Shown here: positions 1,432-9,189 of the stretch, piece by piece
Layout of the letters: every line of letters starts with the position of its first letter
How positions within the stretch are numbered: position 1 is the stretch's first letter
From: an uncultured Alphaproteobacteria bacterium
Lineage (GTDB): Bacteria; Pseudomonadota; Alphaproteobacteria; Rickettsiales; UBA6187
DNA length: 49,167 bases
Direction of reading: 5' to 3'
Assembly: GCA_937907045.1 (NCBI GenBank)
Contig: CALCTU010000032.1
Span: forward strand, 1-49,167
Made by a program: the position numbers and the translations under genes
Notes under the pieces: generated by a model
What the model was told of the DNA's origin: nothing
The model's database searches: none
Seen by the model: only the letters and a program-made list of their open reading frames with translations

Positions 1432-4400
1432 TTATTGGTGGTGCTCATACCATGATTCTACGCTAACTAGCGGATTTTCAATTGAACGTGGGGTTCCAAC
1501 GATAAGGTTACCCTGTTTTACATAATTACTTGGGAGTGTAATTGAGGAATCATCCGTGCTTATACCCATATATATTTTGCCTTTATAGACAACAACTTCG
1601 GTTGGAATACCCTTTCCTAATGAGGTTGTTTTGTGAATTTGGCCACATTCAAAATAATGTTCGGTAATACTTGCTGTACCTACATTACATATATCATTAC
1701 TTGATGAGGGGGTATAGCGTGGAACAATAATATCACCATTCCATATTGTTAATTTTGAAGTTACTTTTTCATTTGCGCCCAAATTTAGGTACCACCCTTG
1801 TGTAAAGTCCGAAGTCACACAGCTTGATGATTGTTCGTCGCTATTATAATGCATAAAGGGAGTGATATCTTGTAAATTTGATGGTGAATAAGCGGTGTCT
1901 AGTGGGGTATATCCAGGAAAATCAGTATCTTTAAGAGCTATGACCCGATTTTGCAAAGAAGTACGTTTAGCATTAAGATTCATAAGGTCTCCGCTACCAA
2001 AAAATTGATATAATGTACCAGAATGGTCAAGAGCAGAGGCTGTTTGATGGAATGTATATCTGCCATTATCATGTGTTGACTGACTTGAAAATACACGGGT
2101 TTTTTCGTATAATGTACCTGAATTTGTGAAATTAATTTTCCACAAGATACCCTCTAAATCTGTCATATATACCAATGCACCATATTGGTTGAAATTTGCC
2201 GTTGAGTCAGCAGTAATAACGGACATCGTAGAGGCAGATGCATTGGTAATGCCATTATTAGCAATAGTGTCGCCAAGTATAATATTTTGTAAGATGGCAC
2301 CATTATTTTCAAGGTCAATCGCATATATTCTTGCGCCAAATGATTGATTGATATTGGTGTGAAAACCACTGCCAATCAGTGCAACCCATTTATTTGTGTT
2401 TTCATCAATGGGTATGTTTACAATAACCGGTGTGGACCATGCTTGCCCCAATGATCGAAAATCCATGGATGCATCAAGAGTTATATCGTCTTGGTTTAGA
2501 TGGTATACTTGACGTTCGCCTTGATCATTCCAGTAGGCGATATGATTTATTTCTCTGGAGAAGGTAAATAAATGTTGTGGTGCAAGTGGATTGGTTACAT
2601 CTAGTGCATAGTATGAGTGTCCTCCTTGCCTCAGGCCGCCCATTAATATGGTTCGCCATTGTCCATCATAAAAAATATCTTTTACTGTTATAGGGCCATC
2701 AACACCAAAAATACTATTACTTGAAGCATTAATACTGCTGATGACTCCTGGAAAATTAGGAATAACACTTGGGGGGATGAATCCCCATAATTCTTGGCCT
2801 GTATCAAAGTCAAATGCATGTAACATACCACCGTTGGAACCAACATATACTACGGATCTTCGTTCTAGGCACGTCGGGGTGCCACATATTCCGCTTTGCT
2901 GAAAATGATGGTAGTTGTGACTAAATCGGTAAAATTCTTCGGAGTGGATATCTGCGCTTGAGTTAGCACCTGCTTTTGGTGGGCCTACTACTACTGCGCG
3001 GGAATGATAAATATCAGCTAATTTCCAGCGTTCAGAAGGCATCAATGTGGTACCTTGGCTGTCAATACCGGTAGGATATTCGTTATAGATATCTTTTCCG
3101 CGAATAAAACGAATAATATTATTTGCAGTATCATCCGATAATGTGCCGGTATGACGTTCACCGAGTAATCCTTTAAGAAGAGAAGTATTAGCGGTAGTAA
3201 AATTATTGAGTGTTGCATCTGCCATAAGTCCATTATGTGCAGTCCAGAGTTTGCGGTTATCTGCTGCAGTTGTATTGAGTAATTCACCTGCGTCCCATTG
3301 AAGATCCCCGAGCAACCCTTGTTCGTCAAGGGCGTATTTTTTCAAATGACCCTTCCATTGATGATTATCTTGATAGTGAAAAACAGATTGAATGAGATGG
3401 TCTGAGCCTTGTGTTGAAGGTACGATGGTAGGAGCGCTAAATGACAATGATGCATTGATTGCTTGCTGAACAAAGCTGTTTACGGCAGATACAATATTTG
3501 CTTCATTGGTAGCTAAAATGGGTGATACATCTTGGGTTCCGCCTGCTAACGATAATTGATTATAAAAATTAGTAGCAATGGGGTCGTCAATAAATGTCCC
3601 TAGTACGTATGTTTTAATATTGTGGGTGTTTAATAGATCAGTAGCAGTTGCTTCGGCTTCAGCTGCAACAACTTCGCGAGCTACATGTTGTCGTACCCAC
3701 CGTCCGTCTGTAATGACAATAATAATAGTTTGCTGACAGGCTGCATCTGGAACTAAAGGTGAGTTTGGGTCATCATTAAGGTAATCACTTGCTAGGTCCA
3801 TTGCTGCTGCCACGTCTGTTGCAAAATGTAAATCGATATCATTATTGAGAAAATCAATAATTTGATTGGCACCTGTTTCTCCTACTGGAACAGTTAGCCT
3901 TGCTGTGGCATCCCAGGTTATAAGGCCAAAATTAGCGCTAGAGGTTAATTCACTATTGGATACAACTGCACGTAAAGCATTTGCGGCTCTATCAATACGA
4001 CGAAGCGTAATGGGTATTACGGCGTTATCGCTTAAGTTGATGACTCTGTCGTTGCCTGCGTCTGCTACCCATATATTACCGTTATTGTCTTTTGAAAGGG
4101 CGTAGGGGTTGGTTAGGCCTACATTATATCGTGTCACATAACTGCCATTATTGCGATATTGGTATATTCTATCGGTATCGATACTTCCTACAAAAATATC
4201 ACCATTATCGGCAATCTCGATACCAATGGCTTTGTATGCTGTTCCATTGCGTTTGACGGTTGGAATGCTGTTTAGCAATAATCCTTGAGAATTGTATTTG
4301 CCGACGAAGCGATGTTGGTCATGTCGGTGAGTAAGGTAGATGTGGTCATTACTATCAATTGCAATATAGGTAGCTTGGGGAATATGATTGGGCCAAGAGT

Positions 4401-8500: not shown

Positions 8501-9189
8501 CGATCTCCACCAGATTTATCAGGTACGTATATATAGCCATCATCATCAACGGCTAGGTAATTAGTACTACTATGAAAACTTGTAGACCAGTCACGTAAGT
8601 GATTTAAGTCCGTATCATATACTGCGACATTGGTATCAAAAGATCCGTTACCATCTGCCTTCATAACATATAGTAGGTCATTTGGTTTATCGATATCAAT
8701 TGATTTAAGGCCGTTTATATTATTAATATAAGACATAGATCCAGTGGTAGTGTCTTCGTAAAGGCGTGATGCAGGAATCTTTTGGACCCGTTTTTTGTTT
8801 GATTTTGTATCTGCAATATATAAGTTGCCTTCTGCATCAAATGTCATATCGATAACTTCGCCAATTTTTGCACTATTTGCAAAGTCCCACTGATTTGTAC
8901 CGCCAACTTGTCCTACAAAATCACCCGATGGATCGTAAATGTAGATAGTGCCATCGTCCTGAGCAATGTATGAATATCCATCTGAGTCAAATTCTATATC
9001 ACGAATTTCTTCTACTTCTTGTCCTGTGATTCTGTTCATTGAGCGTGATACATCAAGTAACAACATTACATTGGCTTTTGTGCCGCCAGATCCTGACCCA
9101 AGAGGTGCTGTTTTGGTAGCCATGACTTGTGTGCTTAATAAGCATAGACAAATACATAGATACGTTGATAGTTTTTGTAATACATGCAT
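5566..9189 (-). CDS. pilY1: PilY1-like type IV pilus tip adhesin, paralog A (same architecture as paralog B)
   Basis: 1207 aa. [13 protein letters not shown]-like blades ([56 protein letters not shown]); FGLITW...[74 protein letters not shown] lies upstream of the ATG at 9189. Confidence 0.85.
   Translation of the reverse strand: [1207 protein letters not shown]

Follow-up and report, generated by a model that had tools for sequence, protein, structure and literature searches.

We describe a form of the type IV pilus protein PilY1 in which the N-terminal vWA domain is split by an insert predicted to fold as a complete six-bladed NHL propeller. The genes lie in a 49,167-nucleotide stretch of DNA, hereafter the window, which is the whole of contig C32 in the 2.36-Mb draft genome of an uncultured alphaproteobacterium of the order Rickettsiales (GTDB family UBA6187). 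PilY1 forms the outermost portion of the type IV pilus, and its vWA domain has been proposed to mediate adhesion and to sense force; we know of no structure of any PilY1 N-terminal head. A whole-genome Pfam scan indicated three pilY1 copies in this genome, here called paralogs A, B, and C. We think it likely that their products are PilY1-type tip proteins with an exposed vWA head, and that the complete six-bladed propeller is nested in the loop between strand beta-1 and helix alpha-1, directly after the second serine of the DxSxS motif of the MIDAS (metal ion-dependent adhesion site).

Each paralog is ordered as a signal peptide, vWA strand beta-1 with DxSxS, the insert, the vWA remainder from alpha-1 to alpha-6, and a PilY1 C-terminal domain (Table 1). 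Paralogs B and A belong to the PilY1/PilC family by their matches to the Pfam model T4P_PilY1 (PF05567), which scored 56.6 and 56.8 bits, respectively, over a gathering threshold of 28.1. An earlier note, made from the letters of the window, had read the beta-1 motif LLLLDTSYSM in paralog B at residues 41 to 50; the motif stands, and its position is shifted by one residue, to residues 40 to 49. Beyond the insert, paralog B carries RIDRAANALRAVVSNSELTSSANFGLITW at residues 314 to 342 and IIIVITDGRW at residues 405 to 414, and paralog A carries FGLITW and then NIVITDGMW. The MIDAS residues are D44, S46, S48, T374, and D411 in paralog B and D46, S48, S50, T408, and D448 in paralog A. All five were invariant both in a 7-sequence alignment of the family and in a 28-sequence alignment, and the DxSxS...T...D set is intact as had been proposed; the NHL insert contained no invariant residue in either alignment. 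Paralog C is represented in the window by an N-terminal fragment that begins KANILLLLDSSNSM, continues with DIAFDSTGNIYVGE, and, as the note had also stated, starts as A and B do; it has a beta-1 strand carrying DSSNS and a first NHL blade. The remaining 998 aa of paralog C are encoded on contig C239 (locus L003), where NHL-like sequence is followed by QTRMDQAKSAIKSILANSEIIGKANFGMTVW and then by VIIVLSDGKW; the gap between the two contigs falls inside the NHL region.

Table 1. Coordinates of the pilY1 paralogs and of their domains in the window
Feature	Coordinates	Strand	Description
pilY1 paralog B (P0001)	1432..4938	-	1168 aa; open reading frame; signal peptide, split vWA with NHL insert, PilY1 C-terminal domain
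Paralog B vWA strand beta-1 with MIDAS DxSxS	4792..4833	-	Residues 36-49, KANILLLLDTSYSM
Paralog B six-bladed NHL insert (predicted)	4006..4788	-	Residues about 51-311; 260 aa between beta-1 and alpha-1 hidden Markov model anchors
Paralog B vWA remainder, alpha-1 to alpha-6	3439..4005	-	Residues 312-500; includes MIDAS T374 and D411
Paralog B PilY1 C-terminal propeller domain region	1435..2862	-	PF05567 at residues 693-937; alignment conserved up to the C terminus
pilY1 paralog A (P0002)	5566..9189	-	1207 aa; layout as in paralog B
Paralog A vWA strand beta-1 with DxSxS	9037..9078	-	Residues 38-51
Paralog A six-bladed NHL insert (predicted)	8179..9033	-	Residues about 53-337; 285 aa; hidden Markov model anchors
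Paralog A vWA remainder	7555..8178	-	Residues 338-545
pilY1 paralog C, N terminus	1..273	-	Signal peptide, beta-1 with DSSNS, first NHL blade; cut by the contig end

Pfam scans of the native proteins indicated VWA_2 and VWA matches that began only at profile positions 15 to 19 (residue 313 in paralog B and residue 339 in paralog A). The VWA_2 match (profile length, 107; cutoff, 27 bits) spanned residues 313 to 412 and profile positions 19 to 106 in paralog B, with a score of 40.1 bits, and residues 339 to 449 and profile positions 18 to 106 in paralog A. Thus, the part of the profile that contains beta-1 and DxSxS is exactly the part that is absent from the native match. The insert was excised in silico by joining residues 25 to 54 of paralog B to residues 307 to 520, and equivalently for paralog A, with a construct lacking the leader as the control. 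When the leader was included, VWA_2 covered profile positions 1 to 106 in both paralogs, and its score increased from 38.6 to 52.5 bits in paralog B and from no reported match to 30.1 bits in paralog A. The VWA model also started at profile position 1 in both excised constructs, ending at position 151 in paralog B and at position 119 in paralog A. Because the excised constructs match from position 1, the N-terminal strand is, at the level of the sequence profile, the absent start of the downstream vWA domain, contrary to a possibility that the earlier note had left room for, namely, that the DxSxS strand lies outside that domain. A full vWA fold (PF00092/PF13519) was recovered only as a discontinuous domain. 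We conclude that the insert interrupts the vWA domain, leaving beta-1 before it and the elements from alpha-1 onward after it. A nested insert explains the weak or truncated vWA detection in automated annotation of these proteins.

A PDB sequence search with one excised sequence returned no match. A profile of 18 excised family sequences aligned to the solved vWA domain 9no5_A over profile positions 5 to 190 (E = 1.5e-13). In this alignment NiLlllDtSgSm was paired with NILIVLDISGSM, and in the solved structure only about ten residues then precede helix alpha-1. Mfa5 was also among the PDB sequence matches of the excised vWA profile.

Relatives of the family were collected by a profile search of 1.84 billion representative proteins, which returned two kinds of protein: one kind matches the family profile between about positions 5 and 1140, and the other, made up of close PilY1 relatives, matches it only beyond about position 312. 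In uninserted relatives such as P0130, P0142, P0152, and P0174, the leader AKSPPPGTG..ANILIMLDTSGSM runs straight into the helix ..R.DEAKKVIKKIV.., and P0130 gave a contiguous VWA_2 match over profile positions 1 to 106. Homologues therefore exist in which the parent domain is continuous and the insert is absent at the same point. Small hidden Markov models were built for the beta-1 and the alpha-1/beta-2 segments, and the gap between them was taken as the insert size in every protein. The gap was 0 to 5 residues in uninserted relatives, including P0130, P0142, P0152, and P0174; 23 residues in P0112; 47 to 48 residues in P0220 and P0221; 75 residues in P0175; 257 to 312 residues in 37 nonredundant clusters, including paralogs B (260) and A (285); and 316 to 409 residues in 17 larger proteins. 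The excision scans, the uninserted relatives, and the 9no5_A alignment together support the insertion point between beta-1 and alpha-1 that the earlier note had proposed from motif order; the pairing of the strands is deduced.

AlphaFold2 models were computed for residues 1 to 520 of paralog B with the 7-sequence alignment (mean predicted local distance difference test score [pLDDT], 83.0; predicted template modeling score [pTM], 0.64) and for residues 1 to 566 of paralog A with the 28-sequence alignment (mean pLDDT, 82.5; pTM, 0.70). Both models contained an 8-residue N-terminal strand (residues 37 to 44 in paralog B and 39 to 46 in paralog A), and the block at residues 41 to 50 had a pLDDT of 89 in paralog B and 93 in paralog A. 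One short helical turn separated that strand from the blades, which comprised 24 strands in six groups of four at residues 60 to 308 in paralog B and 62 to 334 in paralog A. After the blades, both models followed the order alpha1-beta2-beta3-alpha2-alpha3-beta4-alpha4-beta5-alpha5-beta6-alpha6, which is canonical for vWA domains. The blades had previously been placed at nucleotides 4033 to 4755 in paralog B (residues 62 to 302) and 8215 to 9003 in paralog A (residues 63 to 325), with the same layout in both proteins, and the models agree with that placement.

Foldseek searches of the PDB with the paralog B model returned six-bladed NHL domains first, those of TRIM3, TRIM2, TRIM71, and Thin, at target template modeling (TM) scores of 0.75 to 0.81, with the TRIM3 NHL domain 7qrw at 0.80. 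The paralog A model returned the NHL domains of TRIM71, TRIM2, and TRIM3 at target TM scores of about 0.70. The 24 strands and the fold matches at TM scores of 0.70 to 0.81 speak against blades that form no propeller, an outcome that the earlier note had considered. No vWA superposition was found among the 50 best Foldseek matches of either model, the lists being filled by propeller matches. The Pfam NHL model (PF01436; cutoff, 20) recognized one repeat per protein, at 31.7 bits in paralog B and 20.5 to 23.5 bits in paralog A. An NHL match was present in 24 of the 28 aligned family members, and P0083 carried six canonical NHL repeats (142.6 bits) inside the beta-1/alpha-1 gap. We conclude that the insert, as modeled, is a closed six-blade NHL-type propeller.

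Identity between paralogs A and B was 36% in the NHL insert, 42% in the vWA remainder, and 50% in the C-terminal domain, and the propeller is the fastest-evolving portion of the protein. DxSxS was retained in 36 of the 37 members with an NHL-size insert. Separately, we note that DxSxS was lost despite a propeller-size insert in P0123, P0124, P0126, P0148, P0162, and P0187, with sequences such as VENSYY, LATTKTM, IQTDRW, and PELSGSL at the site. The metal site is therefore dispensable in some sublineages.

One metagenomic relative, P0095 (1184 aa), contained two DUF642 domains (residues about 48 to 370) and no propeller at the exact beta-1/alpha-1 position. In a quick maximum-likelihood tree of the part downstream of the insert, P0095 was sister to the NHL-bearing P0005, which suggests that the cassette was replaced at the insertion site. 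Moreover, the uninserted P0130, the short-loop P0112, and the DUF642 protein P0095 nested in NHL-bearing clades with moderate to good support, and paralogs A and B were sisters with a support of 100. The tree suggests, as no more than a lead, that the ancestor of this clade already had the propeller and that some descendants have since lost it or replaced it at the same site. By comparison of these proteins, the content of the beta-1/alpha-1 loop appears to have been exchanged among relatives while the metal site stayed fixed.

Larger PilY1 relatives of 1380 to 1566 aa (P0140, P0151, and P0158-P0226) formed a well-supported clade with inserts of 287 to 409 residues at the same site and extra sequence within the C-terminal domain as well. 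In the PilY1 proteins of Pseudomonas oryzihabitans (L045) and Methylophaga (L071), 263 and 188 residues, respectively, separate DxSxSM from a QNFANWYS/TYYRSR helix. The spacing hints at a large insert that divides the vWA domain of these two proteins at the same loop, an insert that neither Pfam nor hhalign confirmed: Pfam found no vWA domain in either N terminus, native or excised, and hhalign aligned only the T...CxxxxxxTDGxW segment, with low probability.

Comparison with homologues, as the earlier note had proposed, located the same insertion in at least 37 protein clusters and in all 11 other genomes of the window's own family. Each of these genomes gave one match, and every same-family match not cut by a contig end spanned the whole 520-residue head. 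Only 2 of 29 other families of the order had a match. Among GTDB species representatives queried with the full-length alignment, near-whole-protein matches were found in L005, L012, and L019, which are uncultured marine or aquatic genomes; the closest match, at 42% identity, was L004, which is truncated at its contig ends. A related-locus search with a single-protein query found no relative. One of the clusters contains proteins annotated as "PilC/PilY family type IV pilus protein" from Candidatus Pseudothioglobus and Thioglobus. We conclude that the propeller-bearing form is the standard PilY1 of this bacterial family. An assembly or fusion artifact was also considered and is ruled out by the three paralogs, the at least 37 independent clusters, and the 13 related genomes with the layout.

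PilY1/PilC proteins with an N-terminal vWA domain have been described in P. aeruginosa (C-terminal structure, PDB 3HX6), Legionella, M. xanthus (PilY1.3), and Kingella (PilC1). They share PF05567 and a minor-pilin operon with the proteins described here, which differ in that a complete six-blade NHL propeller is nested in their beta-1/alpha-1 loop. For the N-terminal domain of PilY1, a 2026 survey names vWFA, DUF4114, or none (PMC13190605). The earlier note had spoken of a new variant of the adhesin head. Our literature search found no paper that names PilY1 together with NHL or that describes the layout, and to that extent the claim stands; the layout is not peculiar to this genome, being family-wide and present in dozens of metagenomic clusters. 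Automated Pfam annotation lists the domain combination for some members but not the topology. We conclude that the nested-propeller PilY1 head is a real, conserved, and undescribed variant of the adhesin head.

The integrin alpha subunit with an alpha-I domain likewise combines a vWA/MIDAS domain and a beta-propeller, joined by domain insertion, in an adhesive head (established knowledge; see also PMC12422189). There, however, the vWA domain is inserted in the propeller, and here the propeller is inserted in the vWA domain, a topological mirror image. There is no homology beyond the folds, and the head described here would be a single bacterial chain at a pilus tip. RrgA of S. pneumoniae and Mfa5 of P. 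gingivalis are also vWA/MIDAS adhesins at the tip of a surface fiber. The RrgA vWA domain carries inserted arms near the MIDAS. Inserts of the RrgA/Mfa5 type are short arms in unrelated pilus systems, whereas the insert here is a whole autonomous propeller. The NHL propellers of TRIM2/3/71, Brat, and M. tuberculosis PknD match in fold (TM scores of 0.70 to 0.81 over about 270 aligned columns) but at an identity of only 14 to 24%, and each forms the end of a kinase sensor or of a cytoplasmic factor that binds RNA or protein, whereas the propeller here is an internal insert of an extracellular bacterial adhesin.

In the arrangement that we favor, the C-terminal PilY1 domain would dock on the minor pilins whose genes lie upstream, PilV, PilW, and PilX, and the vWA-plus-propeller head would point outward from the pilus tip. 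Anchoring through the C terminus and exposure at the tip draw partly on established knowledge of PilY1 (PMC13190605). The insertion point would lie on the MIDAS face, and since the DxSxS loop is on that ligand-binding face, the propeller would sit beside the metal site. The propeller may act as a variable ligand-binding module that gives specificity, and the MIDAS may provide a conserved metal-dependent contact with an acidic ligand. A two-part adhesive head made of a variable propeller and a conserved metal site is the most economical reading. The propeller would be tethered at both ends, to the MIDAS loop and to helix alpha-1; any load on it would be passed on to these two elements, and retraction tension from a bound surface would therefore act directly on the metal site. 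In this way the family suggests where force enters the vWA domain. It also shows that a complete autonomous domain can be accommodated in the loop adjoining the metal site and that, in this lineage, such a domain is usually present. With its three diverged copies in tandem, this organism might have three alternative tip specificities; the copies differ most in the propeller and offer a clear, testable model for the diversification of tip specificity.

Several points weigh against the nested, two-part head. The AlphaFold2 model of paralog B drew on 7 sequences only. Neither the location of beta-1 between beta-2 and beta-4 nor the way the propeller lies with respect to the MIDAS was directly seen; the placement of beta-1 follows from the length and confidence of the strand, from a 24-strand propeller that is complete without it, from a fairly high two-domain pTM, and from the uninserted homologues. 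Ligand binding, metal occupancy, and location at the tip are likewise inferred. DxSxS was lost in some family members (e.g., P0124 and P0187) and in a few more distant ones, so that the metal site is not indispensable everywhere. Finally, the tree behind the cassette swaps was quick and carried long-branch warnings, and its sample, having come from a profile search, was biased to NHL-bearing proteins.

A broader proposal, which we hold tentatively and think somewhat doubtful, is that the beta-1/alpha-1 loop of the PilY1 vWA domain functions generally as a docking site for ligand-binding cassettes that can be exchanged. The cassette would lie on the MIDAS face, tethered to the MIDAS loop and to helix alpha-1, and its capture of a ligand under retraction force would therefore translate directly into a conformational change at the metal site. 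The cassettes in question are the NHL propeller, the two DUF642 modules, Tyr-rich loops, and possibly the unconfirmed large insert of the Pseudomonas-type PilY1. If true, the proposal would supply a concrete structural mechanism for surface sensing by PilY1.

The principal rival to a ligand-binding propeller, which we consider unlikely, is that the nested propeller is a lid or an intramolecular ligand, in effect a mechanosensitive gate, which keeps the MIDAS masked and is moved aside by force or a cue. Such a lid would be well placed by an insertion directly after DxSxS, beside the metal site, but no propeller residue was seen reaching the metal. Strict conservation of the MIDAS next to a varying insert would suit a lid, as would the link between PilY1 vWA domains and surface sensing (PMC13190605; bioRxiv 10.1101/2023.08.03.551776) and the analogous unmasking described for other bacterial vWA adhesins; a pure lid, however, would not need a 260-aa propeller, and its swap for two DUF642 carbohydrate-binding-like domains, or its loss, in close relatives is unexpected for a lid.

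A tandem rather than nested arrangement, in which an N-terminal NHL propeller precedes a truncated vWA-like domain and the DxSxS strand is either the "velcro" strand of the propeller or an unrelated leader, seems to us very improbable. Native Pfam scans do report NHL and then a vWA match without its first 15 to 19 profile positions, yet the leader is a textbook vWA beta-1 with a MIDAS and scores as such after excision, and in relatives that have no insert this leader is joined directly to the same helix. An N-terminal strand closes many propellers, but the insert alone has 24 strands, the complete set for six four-stranded blades. The position of beta-1 in the AlphaFold2 models was not seen at the coordinate level; a vWA sheet without its central beta-1 would, however, be incomplete, yet beta-2 and beta-4 were predicted at a pLDDT of about 90.

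An enzymatic propeller (lactonase, lyase, or SMP-30 type) that the pilus tip would deliver, to which weak Pfam similarity to Vgb_lyase and SGL (the latter matching 13 of the 28 family members) might point, was rejected as scarcely credible: the insert has no conserved residue set, the lack of any invariant insert residue across the family argues against a conserved active site, the matches in paralogs A and B fall below curated cutoffs and reflect the shared six-blade fold, and the best structural matches are the nonenzymatic TRIM NHL domains.

The pilY1 genes are located in a pilus-tip operon. A minor-pilin cluster on the same strand (827-12435) encodes two N_methyl pilins, PilW (PF16074), and a PilX_N protein, and genes for a T2SSE ATPase and a prepilin peptidase adjoin the pilY1/minor-pilin cluster. 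The three pilY1 copies are in tandem (window 1-10467 plus contig C239), and other genomes of the same family have one copy only. Each copy is preceded by a small open reading frame without a Pfam family (324-797, 4987-5457, and 9239-9739), and another such frame lies at 9979-10467.

Elsewhere in the window, a 2922-aa open reading frame on the plus strand (26086-34854) encodes an RTX-type giant secreted or adhesin-like protein in which the RTX calcium-binding repeat was matched over 21 stretches (311.5 bits). The solved structure that best matched the excised PilY1 vWA profile, 9no5_A, is likewise described as a "putative secreted protein, hemolysin."

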